Positions 3,312-62,792 of a stretch of 64,000 nucleotides of DNA are shown here, one piece after another (the first letter of the stretch is position 1; each line of letters begins with the position of its first letter). Source of the stretch: Planctomycetales bacterium. GTDB lineage: Bacteria > Planctomycetota > Phycisphaerae > SM23-33. The DNA is taken from positions 64,542 to 128,541 of the forward strand of contig JAUWNJ010000002.1 of the NCBI GenBank assembly GCA_030612725.1. The letters run 5' to 3'. A program made the position numbers and the translations under genes. The notes under the pieces were generated by a model, which worked only from the letters and a program-made list of their open reading frames with translations, was not told the origin of the DNA and ran no database searches.

Positions 3312-3415
3312 CCAATCCGCGGATTATTAAAAAACGAAGGGATGTCTCCTTCGCCTGACTCGACGAAAGAAACATCCCTTTTTTCTAATCCGTTAAAGCG
3401 TTACTGAACTACCGC

Positions 3416-15990: not shown

Positions 15991-17406
15991 TTAGGGGAGT
16001 TGTTCGACCAGCATTTTGAGCAGGGTTTTTGTGGGCATGGTTTTTGGTCCCGCCGGCGTCATCCATCGGCAGGAGTGGTGGTTTTCGGCGAGCATTTTTT
16101 CAACCCGTTGCACGGCAAGGACTACTGAAGAATGGTTCTTACCCGTGAATTGCCCTATTTCAGGAAAACTCATTCTCGTGTGTCGTCGGGTCAGGTACAT
16201 CGTGATGGCGCGGGCGAGGCTGACGGTGTGCGTTCGTCGCGATGAGTGGATGTCCGCCGGTGTGATTCCGAAGAATGCCGACGTAACCGTTTCGATCTCG
16301 CCGAGCGTTACGGCGCTGTCGGTTCTAACGAGGTGGTCGGCAAGTACGTCGCGGGTCAGGTCGAGCGTTACGGGTTCGCCTGCGAGTTTCGCCAGGGCAG
16401 AGAGTTTCACCAGCGCGCCTTCCAGTTCGCGGACCGAGCCGTGAATGTGCATGGCAATGTATTCCACCACGTCGCGCGGCGCGGGAAGTTTCATCTTCAA
16501 AGCGAGCCTGCGGAGAATTTTGATTCTCGTTGTCCGGTCGGGCGGGTCGATCCTGACGACCATTCCCGAAAGGAATCGGCTGACGAGTTGTTCTGTGAGT
16601 TTCCCAAGCAGACGCGGATGAGCGTCCGAAGCCATCACAATCTGCTTATCTGCGCCGTGGATGGTGTTGAAGGTGTGAAGAAACTCCTCCTGCGTAGCCT
16701 TCTTGGCGGCGAGAAAGTGAACGTCGTCGATGACCAGCAGGTCAAGCCGACGGTAGGTTTTCCGAAAGGCATCCGTTTTTTTATACCTTATGCCCTGGAC
16801 GAAATCGTTCGTGAACCGCTCTGCGGTGATGTATTTCCATGTGAGTTTTCTACCGTTGTTGTTTTGGGCGACGGCGTTGCAGATTCCCTGAAGAAGGTGA
16901 GTTTTTCCCACGCCGCAGGTTCCGTGGATGAACAGCGGGTTGAATGTTACCTTGCTGTTCTGAGCGACGGAAAGCGCCGCCGAGTATGCCAGTTTATTCG
17001 ATGTCCCGGTTACGAAATCCTCTAATTTATATCGCAGTTTGGACGCCGGCGCTAATTTTCGTCGGGCAGTTCCAGCCGTTCCACGATTCACAAGGTTTGC
17101 CTGAACGTCCAGTTGGCGTCCGCGAAGACGTCCGCTCAACGTCGGGTCCACGGAGACTGTTACGCGCCTTTGCCGACCGGTAACTTCCCTGCTTGCAGCC
17201 GCTAAGTCTTCCGCGAAGTGGCTTTCGATCCACCCGGCGATAAACGGATTGGCCGCATCGACCTTGACGTCCTCGTTTTCGACGGAGACCTGCGCAGCGT
17301 TCTTGAACCAGGCGTTAAATTTCTGTGTACCGATTCGCCTATGAACAACCTCAAGGACTGCGTCTGTCGGGTCCGTTCGGGCACATGCACCTATTTCGGC
17401 GGACAT
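15991..17406 (-). CDS. dnaA: chromosomal replication initiator protein DnaA
   Basis: AAA+ Walker A GTCGVGKTHLL, the sensor motif, and a C-terminal DNA-binding domain (...ITMYLTRRHTRMSFPEIGQFTGKNHSSVV). Confidence 0.95.
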   Translation of the reverse strand: MSAEIGACARTDPTDAVLEVVHRRIGTQKFNAWFKNAAQVSVENEDVKVDAANPFIAGWIESHFAEDLAAASREVTGRQRRVTVSVDPTLSGRLRGRQLDVQANLVNRGTAGTARRKLAPASKLRYKLEDFVTGTSNKLAYSAALSVAQNSKVTFNPLFIHGTCGVGKTHLLQGICNAVAQNNNGRKLTWKYITAERFTNDFVQGIRYKKTDAFRKTYRRLDLLVIDDVHFLAAKKATQEEFLHTFNTIHGADKQIVMASDAHPRLLGKLTEQLVSRFLSGMVVRIDPPDRTTRIKILRRLALKMKLPAPRDVVEYIAMHIHGSVRELEGALVKLSALAKLAGEPVTLDLTRDVLADHLVRTDSAVTLGEIETVTSAFFGITPADIHSSRRTHTVSLARAITMYLTRRHTRMSFPEIGQFTGKNHSSVVLAVQRVEKMLAENHHSCRWMTPAGPKTMPTKTLLKMLVEQLP

Positions 17407-17908
17407 TTTCTATTCCTTTTTCGACCGGGCAGTAATACCGCCGGAAACACACCAGTTCTTGCGGTATCGATAAAATCTGATCTGAAATCCTGTTTTATGA
17501 AACTCAACCAACGCATACGAATTTATCATCGACTCGACTACTGTCAAAGTGGTAATTGTCGCTTTTCTTATCCACATCAAGTCAAGCCTCGCTTGCAGAG
17601 AAACTTCCGAAGCAAAGTTTTTTTTCATTCACCGGTTATGCACAAAATTTCCACGAAGCGCGACCGTGAAAAGAAAAATTAGCAGGGATGCAGGGGATAA
17701 AGAGGATAAAACATCTTTTCAAAATTCAAACAGGTGCTTTTCTTCTTATTGAAATTCGCTTTTTATCCCGTGCATCCCCTGCATCCCTGCTAATTCTTTT
17801 CCCTGTATTCCTGCTGGTTCTTGAAAATTTGTTGTTTGACAATCGCCGTTCGAAAATCGACAATTGGCAATCGACAATCGGCAATTGGCAATTGAAGGAG
17901 TTTTTACA
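17407..17908. promoter_or_regulatory. putative oriC and dnaA promoter region
   Basis: Perfect DnaA box TTATCCACA at 17568-17576 and TTATGCACA at 17636-17644, plus 7/9 variants (TTATCCTCT rc near 17702, TTATCCCGT near 17766). A perfect 22-bp inverted repeat (17677-17698 / 17774-17795) flanks the AT-rich tract. Confidence 0.6.
17838..17895. repeat. tandem CAATYGRCAAT array in the 5' leader of the 17909 gene (family also at 19125-19160 and 46461-46504)
   Basis: gacaatcgccgttcgaaaatcgacaattggcaatcgacaatcggcaattggcaattg. Confidence 0.7.
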
Positions 17909-18571
17909 GTGAGATACTTCGTAGCGATTCCGGCATTGTGTCTGGTTTTTGCGTTGTTGACGGCCTCGGCTGAGCCGGTTCCCAAACCCGGCGTGGTGGC
18001 GAGAAGCTGGGAATTGGAATTCGAGTACACAACGCCCCAGCCATTTGAGATCCAGTTGCCCGGATGGAAGGAAAAGCGAACCTTCTGGTACATGCTTTAC
18101 ACTATAAGCAATCGAAGCGGCACTGATCGCATCTTCGTACCGGAGTTCTGCCTCTACACCGACACCGGTGATGTCCGCCGGGGCGGTGATCGGGTCTCCG
18201 CCGGGGTATTCCGAGCCATTAAAAAACGCCACAATAATCCGCTATTGACGGATATGGCCTTTATTACCGGGAAGGTACTCCAGGGTGCCGATAACGCCAG
18301 GGACGGCGTGGCGATATGGACGGATTTTGACCACAAAGCACGTGGTTTCAACGTATTTGTGGGAGGGCTTAGCGGCGAGCGGAAAAAGGTAAAACTGCCT
18401 AAACCCATCACCGTTACTGTTGCCGACGAGAACGGAAAAGAGAAAAAGGCAACCAAGACCGAAGTCGTTCTCTCTAAAACGCTGAGCCTGCGGTACTTCC
18501 TTCCCGGCGACGCATCCGCCAGATCGGCTGACACGCCCCAACTCCGGAAAAAGCAGTGGGTGATGCGGTAA
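17909..18571 (+). CDS. hypothetical secreted protein
   Basis: GTG start 7 nt after an AAGGAG RBS. Signal peptide VRYFVAIPALCLVFALLTASA. No known domain. Confidence 0.55.
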   Translation: MRYFVAIPALCLVFALLTASAEPVPKPGVVARSWELEFEYTTPQPFEIQLPGWKEKRTFWYMLYTISNRSGTDRIFVPEFCLYTDTGDVRRGGDRVSAGVFRAIKKRHNNPLLTDMAFITGKVLQGADNARDGVAIWTDFDHKARGFNVFVGGLSGERKKVKLPKPITVTVADENGKEKKATKTEVVLSKTLSLRYFLPGDASARSADTPQLRKKQWVMR

Positions 18572-18573
18572 TT

Positions 18574-18648
18574 ATTGCGGATTGTGGATTGTGGATTGCG
18601 GATTGCACACACTCGCTGATTTGTTGGAATCCGCAATCCACAATCCGA
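18574..18648. repeat. inverted repeat built of GGATTGTGGATT units (terminator-like hairpin)
   Basis: Left arm tgcggattgtggattgtggattgcggattgc, right arm gaatccgcaatccacaatccg, about 20-nt loop. Starts 3 nt after the stop of the 17909 gene. Confidence 0.75.
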
Positions 18649-18813
18649 AATTGGTAAAAAATCGGCTCAAACCTTACACAACATTCGTGCCGAAATGCAG
18701 TGCTGGAAAAATTAGTCAGACACGATTGACTCCGTATCGTTATGATTGTAGAATACGTGCGGTTAGATGAGGGATTTGTCAGCGATTTGGTTAGATGATT
18801 ATTGAGGTAGGAA

Positions 18814-19047: not shown

Positions 19048-19184
19048 TTTCCAGTTTCCGATTTTCAATTGCGGTTGGATTCTGTGCTATCTTGACCGAC
19101 ATCAACACCCAGCGGAGAATTCCTGCGGATTGACAATCGACAATTGACAATCGGCAATCCCATAGGGATGCCTACGGCATTGAA

Positions 19185-20954
19185 ATGTTTTTGGACGAAG
19201 TGAACATTATGGTAATCGCCGGTAACGGCGGGGATGGGTGCGTAAGTTTCCGGCGAGAGAAATTCATCCCCCACGGCGGCCCGGACGGGGGAGACGGGGG
19301 AAACGGCGGGAGCGTTTATTGCCTGGCTGACCCTACCGTCAACACACTCTACCACATTGCCGGCAAACACCACTGGAAAGCCACTCACGGCGGCAGGGGA
19401 ATGGGTAAAAAATGCCATGGCCGCAACGGTGTTGATGTTGTCGTTCGCGTCCCGCCCGGAACGATTATCCACGATGCCGAGCACGGCATAGTGCTCAAAG
19501 ACCTCGCCGAAGAGGGCCAAAAGGTTTGCGTCGCACAAGGCGGCCACGGCGGCAAGGGCAACGTCCATTTCGCCACTTCAACCCATCAGACCCCGCGCGA
19601 AGCCATACCGGGTAAGTCAGGACAGACCCGCCGGCTTCACATGGAACTCAAACTCGTCGCCGACGTAGGGCTTGCAGGACTTCCGAACGCCGGTAAAAGC
19701 ACGCTCCTGCGACGACTGTCCGCCGCCAGACCCAAAGTGGCTGATTATCCGTTCACTACGCTTGAGCCGGTTCTCGGAATCGTGGAACTATCAGGGCATC
19801 GACGGTTCGTCATGGTTGATATTCCGGGGCTTATTGAAGGCGCGCATCGTGGCGTGGGGCTGGGCGAGGAGTTTCTCAGGCATGTCCAGCGGGCTTCGAT
19901 TCTCGTCCATATCGTCGATATCTGCCCGCAGACCGGCGATGCCGTCGAAAATTACCACACGATCAATGACGAACTGCGACAGTATTCGTCGGAATTGGCC
20001 GAAAAACCGCAGATCGTCGTCGCAAACAAAATGGACCTGACCGACAGCGACGAAAACCTCGCCCGATTCACCCAAGCCGTCGAATGCGATGTCATCGCCA
20101 TATCAGCAGTTACCGGAAAAGGGCTCGATAAACTGACCGAACGGATATGGAAAGTGCTGAAGGACAGGGACTTGGGACTAGGGATTAGGGAAAAGAAGAA
20201 ACATATGAACAAGACCGAATCCATTCTTGCTTGTGATGTCGGAAATTCTCGGATTGCGGTGGGATGCGTGGTCGATGAGGAAGTTTCGCACGTCCGGCAA
20301 GTTTCCCCCGACAATCTCGGCGATGCGCTGGCGGATTTATGGTCCGAGTGTCCCAAGCCGGCGATAATCGCAGCCTGTTCGGTCCAGGCTGAATATCTGG
20401 CGGAACTTGAAAAGGCGTCCAAACATATCGACCAGAAGGTTCTCGTGGTTGGGCGCGACCTTCCGCTGCCGATAGAGACGAATCTGTCCGAACCGGAAAG
20501 TATCGGAACCGACCGTCTTTGCGCAGCGGCGATGGCGTATCACCGCCTCGGCAGTGCCTGCGTCGTAGCCGATTTCGGTACAGCCATTACCATCGACTGC
20601 GTTAATGACGAGGGCGTCTTCCTCGGCGGAGCGATCCTGCCGGGGCTTGGTCTGTCCGCCGAGGCGTTGGCTAACGGTACGTCGGCCCTGCCTGCTGTGG
20701 AGTTGACCAAACCTGATTGGGTTTTCGGAGCCGACACACGCCAGGCAATTATCGGCGGGATAGTTACCGGCGCACGTGGCGCGATGAGGGAACTTGTCGA
20801 ATCCTACGCAACAGAATTAGGCGCTTGGCCCGAAGTAATCCTCACCGGCGGCGACGCCGAGATTGTCGGAGCAGGCTGCGACATAGTCAACGCCATCATC
20901 CCGGACTTGACGCTGTTGGGGGTTGCGCTATCGGCCCGGAATGTTCAGAAATGA
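19185..20954 (+). CDS. obg: GTPase Obg fused in frame to a type III pantothenate kinase (CoaX) domain
   Basis: Residues 1-320: Obg glycine-rich N-domain and G domain (GLPNAGKST, DIPGLIEGA, NKMD). Linker KDRDLGLGIREKKKH, then MNKTESILACDVGNSRIAVG..., a CoaX/Bvg-accessory fold, to the stop at 20954. No stop codon between the two parts. Confidence 0.8.
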   Translation: MFLDEVNIMVIAGNGGDGCVSFRREKFIPHGGPDGGDGGNGGSVYCLADPTVNTLYHIAGKHHWKATHGGRGMGKKCHGRNGVDVVVRVPPGTIIHDAEHGIVLKDLAEEGQKVCVAQGGHGGKGNVHFATSTHQTPREAIPGKSGQTRRLHMELKLVADVGLAGLPNAGKSTLLRRLSAARPKVADYPFTTLEPVLGIVELSGHRRFVMVDIPGLIEGAHRGVGLGEEFLRHVQRASILVHIVDICPQTGDAVENYHTINDELRQYSSELAEKPQIVVANKMDLTDSDENLARFTQAVECDVIAISAVTGKGLDKLTERIWKVLKDRDLGLGIREKKKHMNKTESILACDVGNSRIAVGCVVDEEVSHVRQVSPDNLGDALADLWSECPKPAIIAACSVQAEYLAELEKASKHIDQKVLVVGRDLPLPIETNLSEPESIGTDRLCAAAMAYHRLGSACVVADFGTAITIDCVNDEGVFLGGAILPGLGLSAEALANGTSALPAVELTKPDWVFGADTRQAIIGGIVTGARGAMRELVESYATELGAWPEVILTGGDAEIVGAGCDIVNAIIPDLTLLGVALSARNVQK

Positions 20955-28877: not shown

Positions 28878-29152
28878 AAATCCAAAATACGAATATCGAA
28901 ATACGAAACAAATTCGAATGACCGAATTCTCAAAATCCGAAACGAACTTGGACAACCAAAATCCAAAACGAAAGCACTATGACCTTGAAGATCGAACCTT
29001 TGAGAAAACGAGCGTGTCGCTTTGGTTCAGGAAAGCACTGAACTGATGAACATTTTCGGTTCCATCCTTCGCAAGAGCGAATGATATTTTGAACATTTGA
29101 ATTTCGTATTTCGAATTTGTTTCGTATTTCGGATTTCGATATTCGGATTTAT
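28876..29152. repeat. MITE-like palindromic element, AATCCGAAA/ATACGAAA family, copy 1 (rpe|accD)
   Basis: Left arm aatccaaaatacgaatatcgaaatacgaaacaaattcgaatgaccgaattctcaaaatccgaaacg and right arm ...ttgaatttcgtatttcgaatttgtttcgtatttcggatttcgatattcggattt are imperfect reverse complements. About 150 bp core. No ORF. Confidence 0.8.
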
Positions 29153-30029: not shown

Positions 30030-30090
30030 TTCGATTGCGGATTGTGGATTTCCAATTTGTTTAGAGAAGCCGTCGAACATTCTTCCAGTT

Positions 30091-34101: not shown

Positions 34102-34800
34102 TTAGAATTCGCACTCGAGGGCTGTTTTTTCCAGCCTGGCGAGTGTTTCGTTAACATCGGCGACTTCCAGCAGTCTTAACACCCGTTCGGGTCCGATGGG
34201 TCCGTCCGGTGGTTCAGGCGCAAGCGTGAAGGATAGTTTTCCGTCGTTCCCGCCTGACGACGATATGCCGATGCCGCCTATTTGTCCCTTGATGTCTATA
34301 AGTTTGTTTGGTTTATCATCGCCGGGGTTGCGACGGCGGGCGACTTCCCACTTTGCGGTCTGTTTCAGCGCCTCCAGACGGGCCTCTATTTGCTTCCGTT
34401 CGCAATCGGTCAATGATAATTCGTACGTTACCGCCTTGATTTTCGCCTTGGTCTTGTTCGGTAGCGGTTCGGTTTTTATCAGTTTCATTCCTTCGGGAAA
34501 CTGCTCGCCGAGGTGCAGACCCGGGTCTGACGCAGGTGAATCGGTTTTCAACTCGATTACCATCAATTCGCATCGGCTGCTTACGCCCACCGGGCGGGGC
34601 AGCGGCAGGGACAGTTTGGGACGGGGATTGAATCCTTCGGAGAATTTTATCGGTAGTCCGGCCCGAGCGGCTGAACGTTCGCACAGGCTCATCATGTTGC
34701 GGTGCGAGAGGAACCGCAAATCCCCCCCGACGGTGAACCACACCGCCCATTGCATTTTTGATTTTCGATTTTCGATTTTCGATTTTACCAGGGCGGACAT
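34102..34800 (-). CDS. DUF2344 (TIGR03936, radical-SAM-linked) family protein
   Basis: FTVGGDLRFLSHRNMMSLCERSAARAGLPIKFSEGFNPRPKLSL is the DUF2344 signature. The start may instead be the internal MQWAV at 34755; the first 15 codons run through a gattttc x4 tandem repeat. Confidence 0.65.
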   Translation of the reverse strand: MSALVKSKIENRKSKMQWAVWFTVGGDLRFLSHRNMMSLCERSAARAGLPIKFSEGFNPRPKLSLPLPRPVGVSSRCELMVIELKTDSPASDPGLHLGEQFPEGMKLIKTEPLPNKTKAKIKAVTYELSLTDCERKQIEARLEALKQTAKWEVARRRNPGDDKPNKLIDIKGQIGGIGISSSGGNDGKLSFTLAPEPPDGPIGPERVLRLLEVADVNETLARLEKTALECEF

Positions 34801-34851
34801 ACGGTATTCCGTTTTTTCAGTCCCTAATCCCTAGCCCCAAGTCCCTGTCTT

Positions 34852-36588
34852 TTAGTACGCTTCCGGCATCACTTCACGAATCTGGTTGCGCAGATAGGAG
34901 ACTATTTGTTTGTCTATATTTAATGTCGCCACATGCCGGGCGACCCGGCGGGCGTGTTCGATTGTTATTGAACGAATGACCTTCTTCAGTTCCGGTACAC
35001 TCGGCGGGGCCACCGAAAAAGTTCGCAGACCCATTCCCAGCAACAGAAGGATGTATTTCGGGTCGCTTCCCATCTCCCCGCAGAGCGAAACTCCTACATC
35101 ATATCGCTGTCCGGCGCGGATGACTTCCTTTATCAATCGCAGCACAGCCGGGTTGGCGGCAGTGAACAGCGGCGCGACCCGCTCATTGGTTCTATCGACC
35201 GCCAACGTGTACTGGATCAGGTCGTTGGTCCCGATTGAGAAGAAATCCACTTCCTGCGCGAACTGGTTGCACTGAAGCGCCGCCGAGGGGACTTCCATCA
35301 TCATCCCTACGGGCACGTCTGTGCGGACCTCGACGCCTTCTTCCTCCAGGTCTTCCATCACATCTCGCAGAATCATCTTTGCCTGGCGGAGTTCCATCAC
35401 CGTGGTAATCAGCGGGAACATGACTGATACCTCGCCTTTCATCGACGCCCGCAGAATTGCCCGCAACTGCGTCTTGAATAATTGCAGGTGCTGGAAGCAG
35501 AAGCGAATGCTTCGCAAGCCCAGGAACGGGTTTCGCTCCTGTATGAGCAAATGCGCCTGCGTGTACTTATCAGCGCCCAGATCGAGCGTGCGTATGCACA
35601 CGGGACGACCATCCATAGCCTCGATTACTTTGCAATACGCCTCGTAATGGTCCTCTTCGGTCGGTTCGGTTTCCTTTTCGAGGTAGAGAAATTCGGTTCG
35701 GTACAGCCCGACGCCCTGCCCGCCCCTGGCAAGGACATTCTCCGCTTCACTCGGAAATTCGATATTTCCCAGAAGCGTTATTTCATGCCCGTCCATCGTA
35801 ATGGCGGGTAAATCCCGCAGGCGATCCAGTTCGCGGGTGAATTCGACCTGGCGACGCAGGAATTGGCGATTTTCCTCTATGGTGGCTTCGTCAGGTTCGA
35901 TGATGACAAGGCCACGGTTACCGTCGATGATTACTATGTCTCCGGCGTTGACGGAAACGCTCACATCATTAAGCCCGACAACGGCGGGGATACCCAGAGC
36001 ACGGGCGACAATGGCGGTATGACTGGTCCGACCGCCGGCGTCGATTGCCAGACCCAGGATATGTTTGCGGTCCATGCTGGCCGTCTGGGAGGGCGTAAGG
36101 TCGTGGGCGAGCACGACTACGTCTTCGGTCAGGTGCCCAAGACCTTCCCTGCTTTCGCCGATTAATCGGCGGAGGATACGCTTCTCGACGTCATAGACGT
36201 CCTTGACTCTCTCTGCGAGATACTCCGGCATCTGGAGGAATTCCTTGGCGTACTCGCGCAGGACGGTGGCGACGGCGAATTCAGCCGTTACGCTTTCGGT
36301 TTTGATTTTGTCCCTGACTTTTTCCAGCAGGGCTTCATCGCCCAGCAGCGCAAGGTGGAAGTCGAAGATTGCTCCCGTTTCCTTTCCAAGCCGCTTGGCG
36401 GTGTTGTCGCGCAGTTCGGTCAGTTCTTCGCGTGCCCCAGTCAGGGCGTATTCGAGGCGTTCAGCCTCTTCGCCGGCGCGGTCGGCGCTTATATGCCGCT
36501 CGGGAATGCGATATTCCTCGGCATCCAGGACAACAGCCTGGCAGATCACCACGCCGGGTGAAACTCCGATGCCTTTCTTGATTTCCAT
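34852..36588 (-). CDS. ptsI: phosphoenolpyruvate-protein phosphotransferase (PTS enzyme I)
   Basis: Active-site His region GGRTSHTAIVARALGIPAVVG and a PEP-utilizing C-domain. Confidence 0.9.
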   Translation of the reverse strand: MEIKKGIGVSPGVVICQAVVLDAEEYRIPERHISADRAGEEAERLEYALTGAREELTELRDNTAKRLGKETGAIFDFHLALLGDEALLEKVRDKIKTESVTAEFAVATVLREYAKEFLQMPEYLAERVKDVYDVEKRILRRLIGESREGLGHLTEDVVVLAHDLTPSQTASMDRKHILGLAIDAGGRTSHTAIVARALGIPAVVGLNDVSVSVNAGDIVIIDGNRGLVIIEPDEATIEENRQFLRRQVEFTRELDRLRDLPAITMDGHEITLLGNIEFPSEAENVLARGGQGVGLYRTEFLYLEKETEPTEEDHYEAYCKVIEAMDGRPVCIRTLDLGADKYTQAHLLIQERNPFLGLRSIRFCFQHLQLFKTQLRAILRASMKGEVSVMFPLITTVMELRQAKMILRDVMEDLEEEGVEVRTDVPVGMMMEVPSAALQCNQFAQEVDFFSIGTNDLIQYTLAVDRTNERVAPLFTAANPAVLRLIKEVIRAGQRYDVGVSLCGEMGSDPKYILLLLGMGLRTFSVAPPSVPELKKVIRSITIEHARRVARHVATLNIDKQIVSYLRNQIREVMPEAY

Positions 36589-36598
36589 AATTAATTAG

Positions 36599-36682
36599 CG
36601 GTCAGCAATCAGCGTTCAGCAGTCAGCAATTAAGTGTGTTACTTTTTCTTTTACTGACCGCTGATTGCTGACTGCTGATTGC
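36599..36682. repeat. inverted repeat built of CAGCAATCAG units between ptsH and ptsI
   Basis: Left arm gcggtcagcaatcagcgttcagcagtcagcaat, right arm actgaccgctgattgctgactgctgattgc. The same unit family recurs at 60586-60709. Confidence 0.75.
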
Positions 36683-36690
36683 TCTTCTTC

Positions 36691-36963
36691 TCATTCTTCG
36701 CCGAATTTATCTTTGATCAGCCCCGACAGTTTGCCGATGGCTTTGTCGGCATCCTGTCCATCCGCCCTGATTCGCAGTAGAGTGCCTTTCTCTGCCCCGA
36801 GAGTCAACATCGAGGTAACACTCTTTCCATCCACTACAAGGTCATTCTTGATGACCTCTATTTTAGATTCATATTTATTGGCCAATTGCACGAACTGCGT
36901 CGCCGGACGGGCATGCAGGCCATGTTTATTGATTAATGTTATTTCTACTTCGTGTTTGCTCAA
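36691..36963 (-). CDS. ptsH: phosphocarrier protein HPr
   Basis: HGLHARPAT active-site His15 motif. 90 aa. Confidence 0.9.
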   Translation of the reverse strand: MSKHEVEITLINKHGLHARPATQFVQLANKYESKIEVIKNDLVVDGKSVTSMLTLGAEKGTLLRIRADGQDADKAIGKLSGLIKDKFGEE

Positions 36964-37490: not shown

Positions 37491-37506
37491 GCTTCTGCTC
37501 CTGTTT

Positions 37507-37549
37507 GGTAATTGGTAATTGGTAATCAGTAATTGGTAATTGGTAATCC
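37507..37549. repeat. tandem heptamer array (GGTAATT x6) in the ptsN 5' leader
   Basis: ggtaattggtaattggtaatcagtaattggtaattggtaatcc, 17 nt upstream of the ptsN ATG. Related arrays at 42240-42319 and 55186-55225. Confidence 0.75.
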
Positions 37550-37569
37550 GGCATCGAACACTTTACTGA

Positions 37570-37908
37570 TTACTCGTTTCCTGCCACTGAATCATTAATC
37601 TGTTCATGTGTCGGTCCATGTCGGTCGCGGATTTTGTCCTTATGGCGTCGCAGCTGCTCTTCCATTTTATGGATGCACTGATCCACGCATGCGTACATAT
37701 CCCGTCCACGATGGTGGGCGACGAAGGTGCTTTTACGTTTTCCTGACGCGACGATCTCGACGTAATGCTCTCCGGCATCGACGGCGAATGTTATATCGAC
37801 GGACTGCAAACCGTTATAAAAATGCGGCAGCCCGTTCACCTTTTCCCGGGCATACTCTTTCATTGCGTCTGTCAGTTCCACGTGTCTGGCCACAACGGAT
37901 ACATTCAC
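37570..37908 (-). CDS. hpf: ribosome hibernation promoting factor
   Basis: Short HPF/RaiA (112 aa): MNVSVVARHVELTDAMKEYAREKV... Confidence 0.9.
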   Translation of the reverse strand: MNVSVVARHVELTDAMKEYAREKVNGLPHFYNGLQSVDITFAVDAGEHYVEIVASGKRKSTFVAHHRGRDMYACVDQCIHKMEEQLRRHKDKIRDRHGPTHEQINDSVAGNE

Positions 37909-41747: not shown

Positions 41748-42239
41748 ATGAGCGTGAACGAATATCAAGGCAAGTTGATCGCGCCGGCCGGTGCGAAGTT
41801 CGCCGTTATCGTCAGCCGGTTCAACGAGTTCATTACATCGAAACTGATGTCGGGTGCAATTGACGCGCTGACCCGTCACGGTGCAGGCGACAGCGACATT
41901 GACGTGGTATGGTCGCCGGGATGTTTCGAGATTCCGCTGTTATGCCGGCGTCTGGCAGAATCCGGAAAGTATGCCGGAGTGATTTGCCTGGGGGCGGTGA
42001 TTCGCGGCGGGACGGAGCATCACCGATACATCGCGTCGGAAGTTACCAAGGGAATAGCAGCCACATCTCTGGCAACCGGCCTGCCGTGCATCTTCGGCAT
42101 CCTGACCTGCGACACCATCGAGCAGGCGGTAGAGCGGGCAGGAACCAAGAGCGGAAACAAAGGCGCCGACGCAGCCATTGCCGCTATCGAAATGACTAAC
42201 CTGATGGGGCAACTGCCTGCCACGAATTCCACGAAGTAA
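41748..42239 (+). CDS. ribH: 6,7-dimethyl-8-ribityllumazine synthase
   Basis: [20 protein letters not shown]...[10 protein letters not shown]. Confidence 0.9.
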
Positions 42240-42319
42240 GTAATTCGTAATTGGTAATTCGTAATTCGTAAAAAAACCGATGCTCTGTTACCAATTACGA
42301 ATTACCAATTACGAATTAC
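42240..42319. repeat. 27-bp near-perfect inverted repeat of TAATTCGTAATTGG units between ribH and nusB
   Basis: Left arm gtaattcgtaattggtaattcgtaattcgta, loop aaaaaaaccgatgctctg, right arm ttaccaattacgaattaccaattacgaattac. Confidence 0.8.
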
Positions 42320-42346
42320 AAAATTCATGGAACGGAGTTTTTCGGA

Positions 42347-42763
42347 GTGATTGAGCACCACAAAGCAAGGCTGATGGCGATGCAGGGTCTTTGTTGCCTG
42401 GACGTTCAGGGCGATGACGGCATGGATGCAACGCTGGGATTTTTCCGCGACGGTAAGGAAAGCCTCGAAACCACCGACGAGGCGGAATGCATGATTCGCG
42501 GCGTTCTTGCCGAAAGGAACGAAATCGACGAACTCCTCAGCGGGCAAAGCCGGCACTGGAAAGTCGCTCGCATGGGGCTTCTGGAGCGAAATATCCTGCG
42601 GCTGGCTGTTTGGGAACTACTGACAACCCACACGCCGAAAAAAGTCGTCATCAACGAAGCAATTCGCCTGGCGAAGGAATTCGCCTCGGCTGAATCGTCA
42701 AAGTTCGTCAACGGCGTACTCGATGCAACAGCGGAAAGAATCACAGAGAATAGTAGTCAGTAG
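42347..42763 (+). CDS. nusB: transcription antitermination factor NusB
   Basis: NusB fold: ARLMAMQGLCCLDVQ...ERNILRLAVWEL. Confidence 0.9.
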   Translation: MIEHHKARLMAMQGLCCLDVQGDDGMDATLGFFRDGKESLETTDEAECMIRGVLAERNEIDELLSGQSRHWKVARMGLLERNILRLAVWELLTTHTPKKVVINEAIRLAKEFASAESSKFVNGVLDATAERITENSSQ

Positions 42764-42932
42764 TAAAATCCGAATATCGAAATCCGAAATCCGAAACAAT
42801 ATCGAAATACGAATGGCCAAAATTAGAAACACCATTTTCAAGTTGTCGTATAGTTTGAAACATTTGAAAATTCGGATTTTGAATTTGTTTCGGATTTCGG
42901 ATTTCGGATTTCAATATTCGGATTTAAGTACC
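42764..42932. repeat. MITE-like palindromic element, AATCCGAAA/ATACGAAA family, copy 2 (nusB|ftsY)
   Basis: Left arm aaaatccgaatatcgaaatccgaaatccgaaacaatatcgaaatacgaatggccaaaat, right arm aaaattcggattttgaatttgtttcggatttcggatttcggatttcaatattcggattt. Starts immediately after the nusB stop. Confidence 0.8.
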
Positions 42933-42965
42933 ACCTATTAAACACCACACGCGGAGCGTGAATAA

Positions 42966-43886: not shown

Positions 43887-43914
43887 AGGAAGGGTGTAGG
43901 GCGTAGGGCGTAGG

Positions 43915-46455: not shown

Positions 46456-46504
46456 GTCTTCAATTTCTTTTCAATTGGCAATTGAAAATCGGCAATTGGC
46501 AATC

Positions 46505-52357: not shown

Positions 52358-52386
52358 GCGTTGCAACAATACGTAACACGGGCGAG

Positions 52387-53256
52387 TTACCTCGAAAAGG
52401 TGGCTCGCCCTTTTTCTGCGCCGTGATTCTTTCGCCCGGGTCGAAGTATCAGCGTAAAGCCGCCGACAGTGATGATAACCAGCGTCCCCGGTTCGGGAAT
52501 CTGCTGCATTATCCATCCTGAATACGCGCTGACCCTGACGTCGTACCCCCTGTCGCCGTATTCAGGGTAAATTGAGTCGCCGTCAAAGTTCGTGATTCCG
52601 ACGTGGATTCCGACGATCTTCAGCCCGCCTGCTTCGGCGACAAAAGAAGGTCCGCCGGAATCGCCTTTCGCTATCATGGACTCGGTTGTTCCTTCGGGCG
52701 GACTTCCCCCTCCGTCGGCGGGTTCGTCGAAATCGAACATAAGGAAGCCGGAGATGGTACTGTCAATCCGATTTCCACCATAGCGTCCGGTTCCCCTTGG
52801 GTATTGACCCGGTTCGGGCATACCGGTTCCACTCTCGCCGAATCCGACGATAATGATCTCGCTGCCAAGTTCGTTCGTCCGGGAATTAACCTGGTATCCG
52901 GGCAGGCCGGTGCTCCTGTCCAGACGGACGACGGCAAGGTCTTTATAGGGGTGAACATATTTCTCGACCAGGCTGAACGTTTCGGAGCCGGAGGCGGTGT
53001 ACAACGTGAAGGTATGTCCGGAAATATTTTCAACGGCATGTTTCGCGGTCAGAATGTGAACCGGACTGATCAGTACGCCGGTCGTTCCCCCAGCCGAGGA
53101 AAGATACCCGACGCCTTCCAGCCCGGGCATCAAGTCGTACCGGTGATAGGCAGGGTCGTCGCAAACTACAATGGCCGACGAATGAGCGGGAAATGCACAA
53201 ATCACCGCGAGGAACGCCAGGGTTCCGCAAATCCATGGGTATAAATCGCTTCTCAT
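52387..53256 (-). CDS. trypsin-like (S1) serine protease with PEP-CTERM anchor
   Basis: Catalytic triad context TAKHAV (His), GDSGGP (Ser), and a C-terminal IPEPGTLVIITVGGFTLIL. Confidence 0.8.
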   Translation of the reverse strand: MRSDLYPWICGTLAFLAVICAFPAHSSAIVVCDDPAYHRYDLMPGLEGVGYLSSAGGTTGVLISPVHILTAKHAVENISGHTFTLYTASGSETFSLVEKYVHPYKDLAVVRLDRSTGLPGYQVNSRTNELGSEIIIVGFGESGTGMPEPGQYPRGTGRYGGNRIDSTISGFLMFDFDEPADGGGSPPEGTTESMIAKGDSGGPSFVAEAGGLKIVGIHVGITNFDGDSIYPEYGDRGYDVRVSAYSGWIMQQIPEPGTLVIITVGGFTLILRPGRKNHGAEKGRATFSR

Positions 53257-53387: not shown

Positions 53388-53531
53388 CTGTGTTCGCGTT
53401 TGCGCGCGCAAACGCGAACGTAAAAATCGGAGGAAATGAAAATTCCAAAAAAACTTTTCCCAAGGCCACCAAGGACTTATGGCGTCGCTATCCGTTTTGT
53501 GTTCGCGTTTGCGCGCGCAAACGCGAACGCA
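53388..53531. promoter_or_regulatory. two copies of a 33-bp direct repeat, each containing a perfect 28-bp palindrome, upstream of the PEP-CTERM protease gene
   Basis: gttcgcgtttgcgcgcgcaaacgcgaac at 53392-53419 and 53501-53528, 109 bp apart. They lie 136 and 245 nt upstream of the protease start. Confidence 0.6.
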
Positions 53532-53711
53532 AAAGTTAATACGGAGAGAATAGGGACTAGGGACTTGGGACTAGGGACTTGGAAAAAAGAAACAGATGGG
53601 CCGTTTAGGCAAGATGGGCAAAATAGGCAATGGCGGATTTTTTAAAATGGGCGTAAAAATGACACTAAAATACGCAAATCTATGCACGCCAAGGAGTTAT
53701 GGGTTTTGCAA

Positions 53712-53820
53712 TTTTTCCCAATTGTTCCGAATCGTTCCCAATCGTTCCGAATCGTTCCCAATCGTTCCCAATCGTTCCCAATTGTTCCGAATTGTTCCGT
53801 TTCGTTCCGTTTCGTTCCAC
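53712..53820. repeat. tandem array of about 11 copies of the 10-mer ATCGTTCCCA (variants ATTGTTCCGA, TTCGTTCCGT)
   Basis: Unit boundaries were read directly from the sequence. No spacers, so this is not CRISPR-like. Confidence 0.85.
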
Positions 53821-53892
53821 AACGGCGTGGCCCGATTCCGGTATCCGCCTGTGTGCGGCTCGAAAGAAGCGAGGGCCAGCCTGTCGCCAAAG

Positions 53893-54354
53893 TTACATAT
53901 CTTCGTGGTCAATAAGCATGAAGCCGCGTTTTGTCAATATCTGAGCGGACAGGACGTGGTCGTCGGTGTGAAAGACCAGCACCGGATAATCGTTGTGCCG
54001 GAGGAACAGCGGATAGGCAAACTGGATGTTCAGTTCGGCGGCAACGAGCGCCTTGCAGACCTGGCTGAGCGTGTCGATATCGTGCAATGCGACGGCCAGT
54101 ACGTCGGATTCGGTGAATGCCGCACCGGCGTCGATGAGTTTCACACGCGCCTTACCGACGTCGGTGAAGATCATGCGCACCACAGCCCAGTCTGCGGAAT
54201 CCACCACGGACAGACCTGCAATTTCAACGTCGGCTTCGTCCAGAGTAGTAAGCATCTTGCTCAATCTTCCGACGCGGTTGGGCATGAAGATATTGAACTG
54301 GCGGATGGACGGGGTTTCGTACGCTCGCTCGATTTGAGGTCCGGACATGGCCAT
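53893..54354 (-). CDS. ACT domain-containing protein (tandem ACT-like repeats)
   Basis: Two beta-alpha-beta-beta-alpha-beta-like halves, e.g. QFNIFMPNRVGRLSKMLTTLDEADVEI. Confidence 0.5.
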   Translation of the reverse strand: MAMSGPQIERAYETPSIRQFNIFMPNRVGRLSKMLTTLDEADVEIAGLSVVDSADWAVVRMIFTDVGKARVKLIDAGAAFTESDVLAVALHDIDTLSQVCKALVAAELNIQFAYPLFLRHNDYPVLVFHTDDHVLSAQILTKRGFMLIDHEDM

Positions 54355-54432
54355 AACGAGAGATACTATAACCTCAAAAGGTCTGAAAGCAAAGACAGCA
54401 AGAGATTTTTCTTTCAGCGGGTGATGGTTTTT

Positions 54433-55098
54433 TTAATGTATAAGCGCTTTTACGCCCAGCGCGATACCCATGACGGTTACTGCTACTCCGCATAGACCGT
54501 TGGCGATTCTGAAAAATGTCGGTCCGATTTTCTGCGGCCTGAGGCGGACAAGCACAGTAATGAAAGCGAACCAACATGTCATTCCACATGAAACGGCGGC
54601 TACTCCGAGCCACATTCCCACGCTTCCCGCTGATACATCGGCTCCCTGGAGCCAGGCCGGTCCGACTCCCACCCACCAGAGAAACGTGGCAGGATTCAGG
54701 AACGTCAGAATAGCGCCGGTCAAGAGGTCTCCCCCGACACCTGTGCGTCGATGTCGCATTCGTTCGGCGCGGATGGCGGCCTGGACTCGTCGGGACGGAA
54801 CAACCGCCTTGCGAAGGATGAACAGTCCAAGAAGCAGGATGATACAGGCAGCGGGCAGCTCCACGTACTGCCGGATCGAATCGACGTCCGTGTATTTCAA
54901 GAGCGTGCTTCCGCCCCACATCACCAGGACCACTTCGCAGGTTTCGAAGGCTACCGATCCGATACCGACCCACATGGTCCTCGTCCAGTGCATCACCAGT
55001 CCGCGACGAATGGCGATCATATTGACCGGACCGACGACGGGCGCCGCCGCCATCAGACCCAATCCGAACGCCCATGCTAGAACTAAAATACTCGGCAC
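54433..55098 (-). CDS. LysE/RhtB family amino-acid exporter
   Basis: Six TM helices and a LysE-type N-terminal motif. The overlapping 264-aa ORF in another frame is judged spurious. Confidence 0.8.
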   Translation of the reverse strand: MPSILVLAWAFGLGLMAAAPVVGPVNMIAIRRGLVMHWTRTMWVGIGSVAFETCEVVLVMWGGSTLLKYTDVDSIRQYVELPAACIILLLGLFILRKAVVPSRRVQAAIRAERMRHRRTGVGGDLLTGAILTFLNPATFLWWVGVGPAWLQGADVSAGSVGMWLGVAAVSCGMTCWFAFITVLVRLRPQKIGPTFFRIANGLCGVAVTVMGIALGVKALIH

Positions 55099-55294
55099 GT
55101 CTTTTTCGCTCCTGAAAAGTTCCGGCTATGCTAACCGCTGACGACACAATAAAAAAGAGCGAGTCCACGAATTACCCAAATTTTGTAAATCAGTAATTCA
55201 CGATTCCGTTACCAATTACCAACCCGCAGACTGTTTTTTCGATTTCGGAGGCGTTATGATGTCGGTACTGAAGTTTTGTGAGCAGCAGGGATGA

Positions 55295-56284
55295 ATGAGC
55301 GTGAAACTGTCTGGTAAGTATCAGAAGAGATGGGTTCTTGTCGGCTTGTGCCTTTTCGGTGTGGTGCTGATGCTTCCACCGGCGGGAAGTGTGCGGGGGT
55401 TTTGTCGTCGTGCTGCCCGTCCCGTTCTGGTTCCGATGAGTATCTTCGGCTCGCATGTTACCGTTCATCTTCGTTCGCGTATGGACGAAATGACGGTATC
55501 GTCGTCGTCCGACGCCGATGAGCGGGCCCAGGCCTTTCGCGGGCAGATACTACTGATGCGGCAGATGATCGAAGACCAGCGCCGAGAAATTCGGACGCTC
55601 ACTAATTGGAACGGTACACTTGAAGGATTCAGGTGCCGTCTGCTTCCCGCGCGCGTTATCGCCGCCGATCCTTTGTCGCTGCGCAACCGCCGACTTATCG
55701 GCGTCGGCAGTCGCAAGAGCGTCGGGCCTGGTGACCTTGTAACCACACGTCGGATAATTCACGAATCCGCCGCGCCGCTGCCGGACAAACTCACCGTCCT
55801 GGGACGAAATTACGTCGTCGGGTGCGTCAGTAACTCGTCAGTCTGTTCGGCGACGCTGACGCTTGTAACGGATCCGCATTTTAAGGCTTCAGCCAAACTT
55901 TGGCGCATGGTCGAGCCGGGCAGGCAGCGAACTATTTTTCTGACCGTCAAGACCGGCGGGGTGGAGAAGCGGACCTTCAAGCACAGCCGAACTACTCCCG
56001 GACCTGAACCTGTTGGGAATCCCATTCCCGTCGAGGCAATCGGTAACGGGCGTGAGGTCGTGCTGGAGCACGTGCCTTCCAATCACAACGTGCGAGCCGG
56101 GGACATCCTTACGTCGGCCGGTTCGTCGGGTCTGTTTCCCCTTGGTCTGACCATAGGCCGAGTCAGTCGGGTTGAACGGGACAAAAACGACGCCCATTTC
56201 GTTATGGTGTTTGTGGAACCCCTTGGAGATTTGCGGCGACTTCAAAATGTGTATATTGTTCTTCCTGATCGAGGTACGGATTGA
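55295..56284 (+). CDS. mreC: rod shape-determining protein MreC
   Basis: N-terminal TM helix, a coiled coil, and beta-barrel domains. It sits immediately upstream of mreD. Confidence 0.8.
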   Translation: MSVKLSGKYQKRWVLVGLCLFGVVLMLPPAGSVRGFCRRAARPVLVPMSIFGSHVTVHLRSRMDEMTVSSSSDADERAQAFRGQILLMRQMIEDQRREIRTLTNWNGTLEGFRCRLLPARVIAADPLSLRNRRLIGVGSRKSVGPGDLVTTRRIIHESAAPLPDKLTVLGRNYVVGCVSNSSVCSATLTLVTDPHFKASAKLWRMVEPGRQRTIFLTVKTGGVEKRTFKHSRTTPGPEPVGNPIPVEAIGNGREVVLEHVPSNHNVRAGDILTSAGSSGLFPLGLTIGRVSRVERDKNDAHFVMVFVEPLGDLRRLQNVYIVLPDRGTD

Positions 56285-56325
56285 TACTGCAACACAACTT
56301 TGTTTTTATGGAACAACAGGGATAT

Positions 56326-56456
56326 GCGAAATACGAATATCGAAATCCGAATGTTCAAAACATCTACGGTAAGACCTGCCGGACGGTGTTTTGGAGATTC
56401 AAATTTGGGTCATTTGATATTGTTTTGAATTTCGAGATTCGGATTTCGGATTTAAA
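56326..56456. repeat. MITE-like palindromic element, AATCCGAAA/ATACGAAA family, copy 3 (mreC|mreD)
   Basis: Left arm gcgaaatacgaatatcgaaatccgaatgttcaaaacat, right arm atattgttttgaatttcgagattcggatttcggattt. Confidence 0.75.
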
Positions 56457-56534
56457 AAACTTGCACAAGGCAATTGATTACAGCGTTTTACAGACAAAAT
56501 CCTTTGCCAAGTTGCATCGTGGGATTAAATAACA

Positions 56535-57074
56535 ATGAGATGGTATCATTTTATAATTCTGGTGTTTGTCGCTGTGGTTGGCGTTGTCGTGCAATCGACG
56601 GCGGGGCAGTTGTTGTGGTTTCGCACGGAGTTAGGATGGGTCGGCCCTGAACTGCTCGCAGCGGTGGCAGTGTTCATAGCATTGTATGCCACAAGCGCTA
56701 CTGATGCGGCATTGTCCGGGTGGATACTGGGATTCGCGGTGGACCTGAGCGTCGGTGGATCGAGCATGGGATTGTTGGCGTTGCTGTACGCTGCCGGTTG
56801 CTGGGGGATATTCCGCATTCGGGAGGTCTTTTTCCGCGACCGGATGATGACACAGATAATCATTGGGTTTATTTTTTGCGTGTTTGTTTATGAATTGTGG
56901 ACGGTCTATGACATCATGGTCGGCGGAAGGGCGTCTGGTGAGTATTTCCGACCGGCCCTTCAGGCATTGGGATTGTCGATTTATACTGCGGTGTTGACTC
57001 CTCCGGTATGTGCGCTGTTAAAACGCCTGCGAGGATTTGTGCTTCCCATGCCGCCGATTCGTGAAAGAAGATAA
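56535..57074 (+). CDS. mreD: rod shape-determining protein MreD
   Basis: Five-TM small membrane protein between mreC and mrdA. Confidence 0.75.
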   Translation: MRWYHFIILVFVAVVGVVVQSTAGQLLWFRTELGWVGPELLAAVAVFIALYATSATDAALSGWILGFAVDLSVGGSSMGLLALLYAAGCWGIFRIREVFFRDRMMTQIIIGFIFCVFVYELWTVYDIMVGGRASGEYFRPALQALGLSIYTAVLTPPVCALLKRLRGFVLPMPPIRERR

Positions 57075-57077
57075 TTA

Positions 57078-59018: not shown

Positions 59019-59036
59019 ATGAAATCATTACGCAAA

Positions 59037-59200
59037 ATTCGAATATCGAAATCCGAAATTCGAAACAATATCGAAATACAAATGACCAAAATCCGAAACA
59101 TAAATACACAAACATTTTCAATGTTCTGTGTTTGGGACATTAGAAAATTCGGATTTTGAATTTGTTTCGTATTTCGAGATTCGTATTTCGGATTTAAAAA
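59037..59200. repeat. MITE-like palindromic element, AATCCGAAA/ATACGAAA family, copy 4 (mrdA|rodA)
   Basis: Left arm aaattcgaatatcgaaatccgaaattcgaaacaatatcgaaatacaaatgaccaaaatccgaaac, right arm aaaattcggattttgaatttgtttcgtatttcgagattcgtatttcggattt. Internal hairpin aacatt-ttc-aatgtt. Confidence 0.8.
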
Positions 59201-59263
59201 AGTGGTTAATGTAATTGGCTATGATGATTTATACATGAGAAACCTTTGTAAAGTTGTGCTGTC

Positions 59264-60580: not shown

Positions 60581-60585
60581 AAAAA

Positions 60586-60709
60586 GCGATCAGCGATCAG
60601 CAGTCAGCAAAAGATGAAAAAGACCGCTGTGCGTCACGTAGTGATGCTACGCATAGCACCGCGTAGCGATACTACGTACCACTACGTGGAACGCTGATTG
60701 CTGATTGCT
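60586..60709. repeat. nested hairpin element (outer CAGCAATCAG-unit stem, inner cacgtagtg/cactacgtg and gctacgc/gcgtagc stems) between convergent rodA and the downstream gene
   Basis: Left arm agcgatcagcgatcagcagtcagcaaaag, right arm gaacgctgattgctgattgct. Inner palindromes were read directly from the sequence. Confidence 0.75.
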
Positions 60710-60714
60710 AAATG

Positions 60715-62707: not shown

Positions 62708-62792
<85 letters not shown>

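Follow-up and report, generated by a model that had tools for sequence, protein, structure and literature searches.

What are the short repeats that fill so many gene junctions in this stretch of DNA, and do they act on the genes at either side? The stretch is a 64,000-nucleotide segment of contig JAUWNJ010000002.1 from a Planctomycetales bacterium and is referred to as the window throughout. The element that raises the question lies between ptsH and ptsI, the genes for HPr and enzyme I, where two complementary arrays of a short unit form a hairpin. The original prediction, made from the letters of the window alone, treated this hairpin as a member of several families of structured elements that punctuate operons. 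The elements of the window are one class, tandem heptanucleotide simple-sequence repeats, and the strongest of them are inverted pairs. Our preferred explanation, held tentatively at a probability of roughly 0.45, is that these pairs form intercistronic RNA stem-loops made of slippage-born heptamer arrays and are neither canonical terminators nor sites for a single protein.

A typical array consists of approximately 4-6 tandem heptanucleotides. Tandem repeats were detected with TRF and with a period scan of our own, and the domains of the window's genes were assigned with Pfam. The period scan found 23 period-7 segments in the window compared with 1.2 in shuffled sequence, and a stricter score gave 13 compared with none in shuffles. 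Periods 5, 6, 8, 10 and 11 gave 0-6 segments each, and period 9 gave 13 segments at the loosest score. The non-coding share is only 14.4% of the window, yet it holds 22 of the 23 period-7 arrays (p = 6e-18); the elements are real and non-random, as had been claimed. Among 46 spacers 25 nt or longer, 15 contain a period-7 array, all within 17.4-61 kb, and the first 17 kb of the window contains no heptamer array. Exact 14-nt and 21-nt super-units were also detected by TRF within arrays, which indicates duplication of blocks of two or three units. With a tandem 7-nt unit, an excess of period 7 and an intergenic location, the repeats belong to the heptanucleotide long simple-sequence repeats, or STRR-like repeats.

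The original prediction had found its motifs correctly at all ten of the sites that it listed. It had divided them into units of 10, 7, 12 and 11 nt, which was a mis-parsing; every unit is a tandem heptamer, and the types are CAGCAAT/CAGCAGT/CAGCGAT, GGTAATT/CGTAATT, GGATTGT/GGATTGC and CAATTGG/CAATCGA. It had also set four or more unit types apart from a AATCCGAAA family, which is a heptamer too (AAATCCG) and falls within the same heptanucleotide class. Beyond its list, heptamer arrays occur as GGGACTW at 20167, 34820 and 53551, as AGGGCGT at 43891 and as AAAATCG at 34754. GTAATTS, CAATYGR, GGGACTW and AAATCCG are each present at 3-4 junctions, and 6-8 unrelated unit families lie within this single 64-kb window.

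The arrays are not a peculiarity of the window. Its enzyme I has its closest relatives in uncultured Planctomycetota metagenome-assembled genomes (MAGs), with 93% identity to CSMAG_432 (locus L001) and 88% to loci L002-L004. Identity falls to approximately 75% for a group that includes Phycisphaerae SM23_33 and to approximately 58% for Tepidisphaerales, including Fontivita pretiosa. By this similarity, the host is placed in a Planctomycetota MAG lineage related to Phycisphaerae. A set of 80 related ptsI loci (1.36 Mb) contains 197 period-7 segments compared with 5-26 for periods 4, 5, 8, 10 and 11; periods 6, 9 and 12 give 71-88 segments, mostly coding. Among intergenic segments, period 7 accounts for 148, period 6 for 5, period 8 for 15, period 9 for 19, period 10 for 6 and period 12 for 10, so that period 9 comes second among them. 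Low-GC members and some other loci of the set have no arrays at all. The period-7 excess, together with these array-free members, makes the phenomenon lineage-wide but patchy, and the window is not atypical, as the same arrays run through the related loci.

Approximately half of the arrays in the window and its relatives form inverted pairs, in which a stem surrounds a unique loop. Pairing of neighboring complementary arrays gave 73 heptamer-armed hairpins, 51 of them between co-directional genes. At co-directional junctions the 5′ arm begins a median of 6 nt past the upstream stop codon, which is often part of the first unit, and the 3′ arm finishes a median of 14 nt ahead of the start of the next open reading frame (ORF). 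The outer helix has a median length of 28 bp (interquartile range 24-31) and reaches at least 20 bp in 68 of the 73 hairpins. The median element is 84 nt long with a minimum free energy (MFE) of -47 kcal/mol, and the loops often open with GAAGA, AAGAA or GTGAA. For RNase III, double-stranded RNA must span roughly two helical turns, and stems this long are usual in exonuclease barriers and RNase III substrates but not in terminators. The predicted stems, being near-continuous double strands of about two helical turns or more, would be of the kind that RNase III accepts.

The arms also have a polarity. G outnumbers C in the 5′ arm of 61 out of 69 hairpins (p = 3e-11), and the order within an operon is stop codon, G/T-rich arm, loop, C/A-rich arm, start codon. 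A 5′-G-rich polarity reads alike on both DNA strands and is therefore independent of the direction of transcription. Unpaired arrays have no overall G/C bias when oriented relative to transcription (28 vs 23); they tend to be G-rich beside stop codons and C/A-rich beside start codons. A period-7 array is present in 48% of the spacers flanking ptsI, 10% of other co-directional spacers, 5.5% of convergent spacers and 3.7% of divergent spacers, where neither the difference between co-directional and convergent spacers nor the lower divergent occupancy is statistically significant. The elements thus have both a position bias and a structural polarity.

In our preferred explanation, arrays would lengthen and shorten via replication slippage of 7-nt units, and the second arm would arise, and stay matched to the first, via inverted copying or template switching within the quasi-palindrome. 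Unit families would spread among junctions by some copying route. Transcribed within an operon, the element would fold into a long double-stranded stem where the upstream cistron has its 3′ end, and this stem could act as an exonuclease barrier, an RNase III-type processing site, or both. Neighboring cistrons, e.g. those for HPr and enzyme I, would thereby be uncoupled in stability or in translation. The proposal that the elements are RNA-structure punctuation is borne out in their placement at gene junctions, where they typically reach from the stop codon of one gene to the start codon of the following one; its RNA part is plausible, but carries no RNA-specific signal of selection.

Several results weigh against the stem-loop explanation. 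Among the 51 co-directional hairpins, the sense strand folds better than the antisense strand in 23 and worse in 27, which gives no RNA-specific signal, and mismatches on the sense RNA are G.U in 64 cases and A.C in 57 (p = 0.59), with no excess of G.U. Rapid gain and loss between near-identical relatives implies that any single element is dispensable, and many arrays are unpaired or decayed. The 5′-G-rich polarity is not predicted by a model based on transcript stability, and the CAGCAAT and AAATCCG hairpins of the window itself show its reverse. The period of 7 and the spread of units among junctions are likewise left unexplained.

The elements of the window are as follows, with z-scores of their predicted folds. 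Pfam mostly confirmed the gene names given earlier (HPr, EI, EIIA-2, hpf, ribH, nusB, accD, obg, RF-1/arfB and rodA).

36593..36683, minus strand: heptamer-armed hairpin in the ptsH-ptsI spacer; arms 36593-36630 and 36654-36683, units CAGCAAT/CAGCAGT/CAGCGGT, stem of approximately 29 bp, 3 pairing registers.
42236..42322, plus strand: heptamer-armed hairpin in the ribH-nusB spacer; units GTAATTC/GTAATTG, stem of approximately 31 bp, first unit overlapping the ribH stop codon.
18572..18651, plus strand: heptamer-armed hairpin of GGATTGT/GGATTGC between gene 17910-18571, whose stop codon it directly follows, and the rpmA promoter.
60585..60709, plus strand: composite element 3′ of rodA; heptamer outer arms AGCGATC/AGCAGTC and GCTGATT around an unrelated inner hairpin at 60623-60688.
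37505..37573, minus strand: hpf-ptsN spacer; 3′ arm of six ATTACCA units kept, 5′ arm reduced to an 11-nt stub, GTAATCAGTAA, overlapping with the stop codon of hpf; folds weakly, z -1.4.
17838..17895, plus strand: CAATCGA/CAATTGG units in a direct array, within the leader of gene 17910-18571 and the region divergent from dnaA; no hairpin, z -0.3.
19048..19160, plus strand: rpmA-obg spacer; 3′ arm GACAATC at 19125-19160 and decayed 5′ arm TTTCCAG/TTTCCGA/TTTTCAA at 19048-19075; z -2.9.
46461..46504, minus strand: array CAATTGG/CAATTGA that exactly fills the 49-nt spacer from an upstream oxidoreductase gene to arfB; no significant fold, z -1.3.
30030..30059, plus strand: three-unit array GATTGCG/GATTGTG after accD; no hairpin, z -0.3.
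55186..55225, plus strand: degenerate remnant GTAATTC ... TTACCAATTACCAA; not significant, z -1.25.
20167..20191, plus strand: direct array of G-rich units, GGGACTT GGGACTA GGGATTA GGGA, located between the coding regions of obg and of coaX, whose ATG follows after 15 nt.
34754..34848, minus strand: ptsI-DUF2344 spacer; on the sense strand GGGACTT GGGGCTA GGGATTA GGGAC (34820-34848), then 4.7 copies of AAAATCG (34754-34786).
43891..43914, plus strand: direct array AGGGTGT AGGGCGT AGGGCGT AGG that fills the ftsY-deacetylase spacer up to the ATG.
53551..53579, plus strand: direct array of four TAGGGAC units, 17 nt upstream of the ATG of gene 53596-54495.
42751..42940, plus strand: long AAATCCG/CGGATTT hairpin in the nusB-ftsY spacer, of the family that had been set apart from the others; spacer z -7.2.
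59035..59195, plus strand: AAATCCG-family hairpin in the mrdA-rodA spacer; z -7.1.
56322..56453, plus strand: AAATCCG-family hairpin in the spacer after mreC; z -4.0.
28885..29150, plus strand: inverted AAATACG and ATTTCGT/ATTTCGG arrays in the rpe-accD spacer, from the tandem-repeat scans.

The claim that the ten originally listed sites are hairpins held for four of them (z -6.5 to -11.1), which are strong inverted pairs of heptamer arrays, and further pairs of this kind belong to the AAATCCG family. It did not hold for the other six (37507, 17838, 19125, 46461, 55186 and 30030), which are single arrays, half-hairpins or remnants (z -0.3 to -2.9). The hairpin between the HPr gene (36691-36963, minus strand) and the enzyme I gene (34852-36588, minus strand) consists of GCGGTCAGCAATCAGCGTTCAGCAGTCAGCAAT, a 24-nt loop and ACTGACCGCTGATTGCTGACTGCTGATTGC. 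As RNA, the segment 36589-36690 has an MFE of -46.1 kcal/mol (z -9.65), and with DNA parameters its z is -6.9. The RNA fold of the ribH-nusB hairpin (42236-42325) reaches z -11.1, and at 42240-42319 its two arms carry their unit variants in mirrored order. The arms at 36.6 kb and 42.2 kb can pair in 3-4 registers offset by 7 nt, in agreement with the pairing in several registers that had been foreseen. For the GGATTGT hairpin (18570-18652) the RNA fold has z -6.5. The rodA element (60582-60712) has an MFE of -62.2 and z -9.2, and its inner sequence occurs as a single copy in the approximately 2.1 Mb of DNA compared. The AAATCCG hairpins at 42797-42887 and 59066-59164 have inner arms of approximately 27 nt in common. 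The G-rich direct arrays (GGGACTW and AGGGCGT) all lie on the sense strand, and three of the four are within 1-17 nt upstream of a start codon. A promoter-like TTGACA-17-GACAAT inside the 17838 array (17836-17864) was flagged by the promoter scan; TTGACAA/GACAATC arrays yield such a sigma-70-like pattern from their own periodicity, because 3 x 7 + 2 = 6 + 17. Logan contig L201 (SRR12623518), which matches the window at 100% identity, breaks off within the ptsH-ptsI hairpin (3273-3364). L201 was the only other contig with an identical HPr in a search for strain-level variation in copy number.

The units themselves are highly diverse. The 244 arrays of the window and related loci comprise 119 different consensus units, of which CAACTGA is the commonest in the related loci (12 arrays). 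An identical unit at different junctions is found in 9.2% of array pairs within a locus compared with 0.97% between loci; unit vocabularies are thus genome-specific and recur at several junctions of one genome. The junction between ptsH and ptsI is filled repeatedly all the same. In 65 loci ptsH lies upstream of ptsI; the junction holds a heptamer hairpin in at least 20 of them, another strong hairpin in 22 and almost no spacer in 11. The units there include CAGCAGT, AAGGATG, AGCCAGG, GGGTTCA, AATGCAG and CCGTGGT, among others, so the junction is re-occupied across the class with units that are unrelated between genomes. In Fontivita pretiosa B-254 (L026), the hairpin at this junction is built of AAGGATG. 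Close relatives differ as well: the window and L002 have CAGCAGT-type units, L003 has ACGAATT-type units, and the hairpins of L001 and L004 are short and plain.

Other junctions change in a similar manner. The 107-nt ribH-nusB spacer is missing from L001 together with its hairpin, and the genes abut (TAATAAGTG). The nusB-ftsY junction holds an AAATCCG hairpin in the window and a 9-mer hairpin in L001 (GCAGGGGAT). The hpf-ptsN hairpin is complete, with GTAATTS units, in L001 and L002 and has lost its 5′ arm in the window; the rpmA-obg hairpin is intact in L202 and has a decayed 5′ arm in the window. Block 18572-18723, which includes the GGATTGT hairpin, is absent from L202, where Obg is 97% identical. 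The ptsI-DUF2344 arrays are kept in L002-L004 with changes in unit number and are replaced in L001 by an 8-mer array of CCGGAATA. Entire hairpins are therefore present in one relative and absent in another while the flanking genes are 90-97% identical. Turnover is fast: arms decay, and the units at a given junction may be unrelated from genome to genome. Arrays of GTAATTS were also sought in metagenomes, which yielded at least 120 contigs with GC of 0.31-0.67. The contigs listed hold many other period-7 arrays (317, compared with 37 period-8 arrays), and an inverted partner lies nearby in 15 of 120, a comparison that is weak since many of the contigs are short.

Array change can also reach the coding sequence. 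In the window, obg and coaX (type III pantothenate kinase) are one continuous ORF (19185-20954). In L202 (2200-2300), the first heptamer of a GGGAYTW array, GGGATTA, provides the in-frame TAG of obg. The first unit in the window is GGGACTT in place of GGGATTA, so the stop codon of obg is lost and reading continues in frame into coaX. Such obg-coaX fusions occur in 2 of the best 120 Obg homologues. The Obg C-terminus GLGTRD in P0003 and P0004 appears, judged from the peptide alone, to be encoded by an array.

The absence of an RNA-specific signal of selection makes a mutational by-product a serious rival. Here the arrays would be non-functional or selfish repeats, and replication or repair prone to slippage on 7-nt units and to inverted copying would fill tolerated spacers with arrays and palindromes that later decay. 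The gain and loss of hairpins between relatives with flanking genes 90-97% identical agrees with this account, as do the numerous half or decayed hairpins, the lack of both a G.U-over-A.C and a sense-over-antisense bias, and the GTAATTS arrays in metagenome contigs with GC of 0.31-0.67. The array change that removed the obg stop codon looks like collateral damage, and the heptanucleotide excess in unrelated bacteria has been ascribed to polymerase slippage (Mrazek 2007, as cited in PMC4679880 and PMC4692102). However, junctions flanking ptsI are approximately five times more occupied than other co-directional junctions, by units that are unrelated between genomes, and the stems are near-perfect at approximately 28 bp and are not decaying. 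The polarity (p = 3e-11) would demand an additional mutational asymmetry, and divergent spacers are the least occupied, though that difference is not statistically significant. We regard a pure by-product as rather unlikely. A role in termination would also suit strong hairpins placed directly after stop codons, as intrinsic terminators are. The elements would then be atypical terminators or pause sites without a T-tract that attenuate read-through, alone or by assisting Rho; with the G-rich arm first, a C-rich stretch for Rho loading would stay unexposed before the stem closes. Canonical intrinsic terminators are scarce in the window, with one convincing case (52380-52410) and counts not above those in shuffles. 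The terminator and promoter scans of the window showed no enrichment over shuffles and did not match the hairpins. Nevertheless, intrinsic terminators combine a short GC-rich stem of roughly 5-14 bp with a T/U-tract, whereas the stems here are 24-31 bp long and mostly operon-internal. As originally noted, no T-tract follows the elements on the sense strand, and none was found in the terminator scan; the rodA element has a T5 run on the opposite strand only. Co-directional spacers are occupied at 10% compared with 5.5% for convergent ones (a difference that is not significant), and essential operon partners lie downstream (mrdA-rodA, ribH-nusB and ptsH-ptsI). The absent T-tract, the very long stems and the mainly operon-internal location fit a terminator role poorly, and we consider it improbable.

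The suggestion that the units are targets of a DNA- or RNA-binding factor, e.g. a tandem cold-shock-domain protein with approximately 7 nt per monomer, would account for genome-specific vocabularies that are reused at several junctions. For the TAACTGA heptamers of Beggiatoaceae, Csp, S1 and CsrA were put forward as binding proteins (PMC4679880), and 5 of 12 window units have a weak GATT core in common (p = 0.03, post hoc); a common 4-nt core per genome was not significant in most relatives. Against this stand the 119 consensus units, the 6-8 unrelated families within 64 kb, the unrelated units at the same junction in different genomes and the pairing of the units within the hairpin, where they are unavailable as single strands. 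Such diversity makes a sequence-specific factor very unlikely, and this part of the original prediction is not sustained. An effect at the level of DNA, through cruciforms or G-quadruplexes that influence supercoiling, replication or recombination, would be consistent with a polarity identical on both strands, as a property of the DNA palindrome itself, and with arms that fold as DNA too (z -6.8 to -10.9); for the four strong window hairpins, DNA parameters give equally good folds. The GGGACTW and AGGGCGT arrays fit a G3N4 quadruplex pattern, like the Xanthomonas and Nostoc repeats that form quadruplexes in vitro (PMC4692102). Most units are too G-poor for quadruplexes, however, and placement is tied to stop and start codons, i.e. 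to gene expression, so that a DNA-level role seems extremely unlikely. A bolder version of the stem-loop explanation is a lineage-wide operon punctuation in Phycisphaerae-type planctomycetes, set by structure and not by sequence. Polar stems of approximately 28 bp, made of interchangeable heptamers, would be kept or regenerated at junctions such as ptsH-ptsI and read by the RNA-processing or translation machinery, or they would be written by a dedicated mechanism that generates and disperses repeats and that is also behind the period of 7 in unrelated bacteria. This version is quite doubtful.

Further candidates were tried and rejected. Selection of units for stop codons in all frames is not indicated: a stop triplet is present on one strand or both in 130 of the 244 arrays, no enrichment over the approximately 49% expected of random heptamers. 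Copies of a miniature inverted-repeat transposable element (MITE) or other mobile element were also dismissed: apart from the AAATCCG inner arms, loops and inner sequences have no second copy in approximately 2.1 Mb, so the elements are not copies of a single mobile element. A search of the window against Rfam 15 at gathering score matched only the tRNA at 62708-62792. REPs stabilize upstream mRNA in E. coli, can affect translation when near a stop codon, and are linked to RAYT transposases. The elements resemble the REP/BIME sequences of enterobacteria and pseudomonads as imperfect palindromes between co-transcribed genes and after genes. Membership was rejected because they have no single 20-40 nt consensus, and instead comprise 6-8 unit families in 64 kb with unique loops. 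REPs measure 20-40 nt with one consensus per family and a GTAG or CGTC tag (PMC3733652), whereas the elements here are approximately 84 nt long, heptamer-periodic and built from many units. No such tag was evident by eye in the hairpin arms.

Closer parallels are found among known heptamer repeats. Knowledge of heptanucleotide repeats goes back to 1990 for cyanobacteria and to 2007 for bacteria at large, and the units of the cyanobacterial STRR1-3 families are CCCCA(A/G)T, TT(G/T)GTCA and CAACAGT. The elements of the window are similar to these STRR in having 7-bp tandem units, several families per genome, intergenic placement and a hairpin between co-transcribed genes. The STRR belong to heterocystous cyanobacteria, while the host here is a member of the Planctomycetota and its units differ; array units in the window and related loci do not match STRR1-3. 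Hairpins of 7-bp STRR between hupS and hupL have been proposed to increase transcript stability or to couple translation (PMC2670836), ideas like those preferred here. According to Mrazek 2007, as reported in PMC4679880 and PMC4692102, heptanucleotides are over-represented among bacterial simple-sequence repeats, and 7 nt was suggested to be the stretch held by DNA polymerase. Inverted pairs make up about half of the arrays here, whereas paired GGGGAYT repeats are rare in Nostoc (PMC4692102).

In Xanthomonas, GGGAATC forms 70-75 array pairs per genome in “convergent orientation” on opposite strands (Rehm et al. 2015, PMC4692102). The position of these repeats is mostly conserved between species, their length and sequence are variable, and most are transcribed (PMC4692102). 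They resemble the present elements as intergenic heptamer arrays, and we read “convergent orientation” as the same polarity, with the G-rich arm 5′. Xanthomonas has one dominant G-rich unit per genome that has been studied as a quadruplex former, whereas each genome here has numerous units, for the most part not prone to form quadruplexes, and stems that span from stop codon to start codon. TAACTGA direct repeats occur in marine Beggiatoaceae, cyanobacteria and Bacteroidetes, with 169 direct sets and one indirect set in Beggiatoaceae (PMC4679880). These also are intergenic heptamers near start codons, and CAACTGA here is one base off; Beggiatoaceae have one unit, nearly always direct, in contrast to the common inverted pairs and many units here. 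Heptamer elements of GGGACCG and MTYCTGA are found in Geobacter metallireducens (PMC2700814). A literature search returned no description of such repeats in Planctomycetota. Since repeats of this kind have already been described in cyanobacteria and Xanthomonas, what is new here is the phylum and not the kind of repeat. The many unit families per genome, the many stop-to-start inverted pairs, the quantified polarity and the re-occupation of one junction seem particular to this lineage.

The surroundings of the arrays have several other features. The window probably spans the replication origin region: dnaA lies at 15991-17406 (minus strand), the cumulative GC skew has its minimum at approximately 12-14 kb, and the divergent region upstream of dnaA has a perfect DnaA box at 17568 and a box with one mismatch at 17636. 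Tandem 9-mers also build hairpin arms, of the GCAGAGAAC type at 8892-8969 and of GCAGGGGAT at 17674-17798; the latter unit builds the nusB-ftsY hairpin of L001 (3185-3345). Inverted 9-mer arrays (GGATTACAG and its complement) at 62112-62142 and 62647-62677 are 500 nt apart. They flank an ORF with low GC at third codon positions (62203-62640, minus strand) that encodes a PD-(D/E)XK nuclease domain, beside the tRNA gene at 62708-62792, and the region 62112-62677 is possibly a small insertion. Just upstream of the TAGGGAC array, at 53389-53534, a 37-nt sequence occurs twice, 69 nt apart, with the perfect palindrome GTTCGCGTTTGCGCGCGCAAACGCGAAC. A 10-nt tandem repeat (TTCCCAATCG/TTCCGAATCG, approximately 10 copies, 53715-53818) lies inside ORF 53596-54495, which has no Pfam match. 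The ftsY-deacetylase junction, with only the AGGGCGT array in the window, contains approximately 480 nt of extra DNA in L001 (1785-2259) with two small ORFs that by eye resemble a toxin-antitoxin pair of the HicB/HicA type. The region 55295-60580 encodes MreC, an unassigned 179-aa ORF, a PBP2-type transpeptidase and RodA; the 179-aa ORF and the transpeptidase gene are 3 nt apart. Gene 55295-56284 matches Pfam MreC and is thus not mreB. Heptamer elements follow the MreC gene, separate the transpeptidase gene from rodA and follow rodA.

For those who work with these genomes, heptamer hairpins break short-read assemblies, as in L201. Arrays also overlap stop codons and can fuse genes, as with obg and coaX, which annotation pipelines for planctomycete MAGs should heed. 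The combination of many unit families, paired stop-to-start stems, a polarity and a re-occupied ptsH-ptsI junction makes the choice between function and by-product directly testable in cultivated relatives (e.g. Fontivita, Tepidisphaera and Humisphaera).

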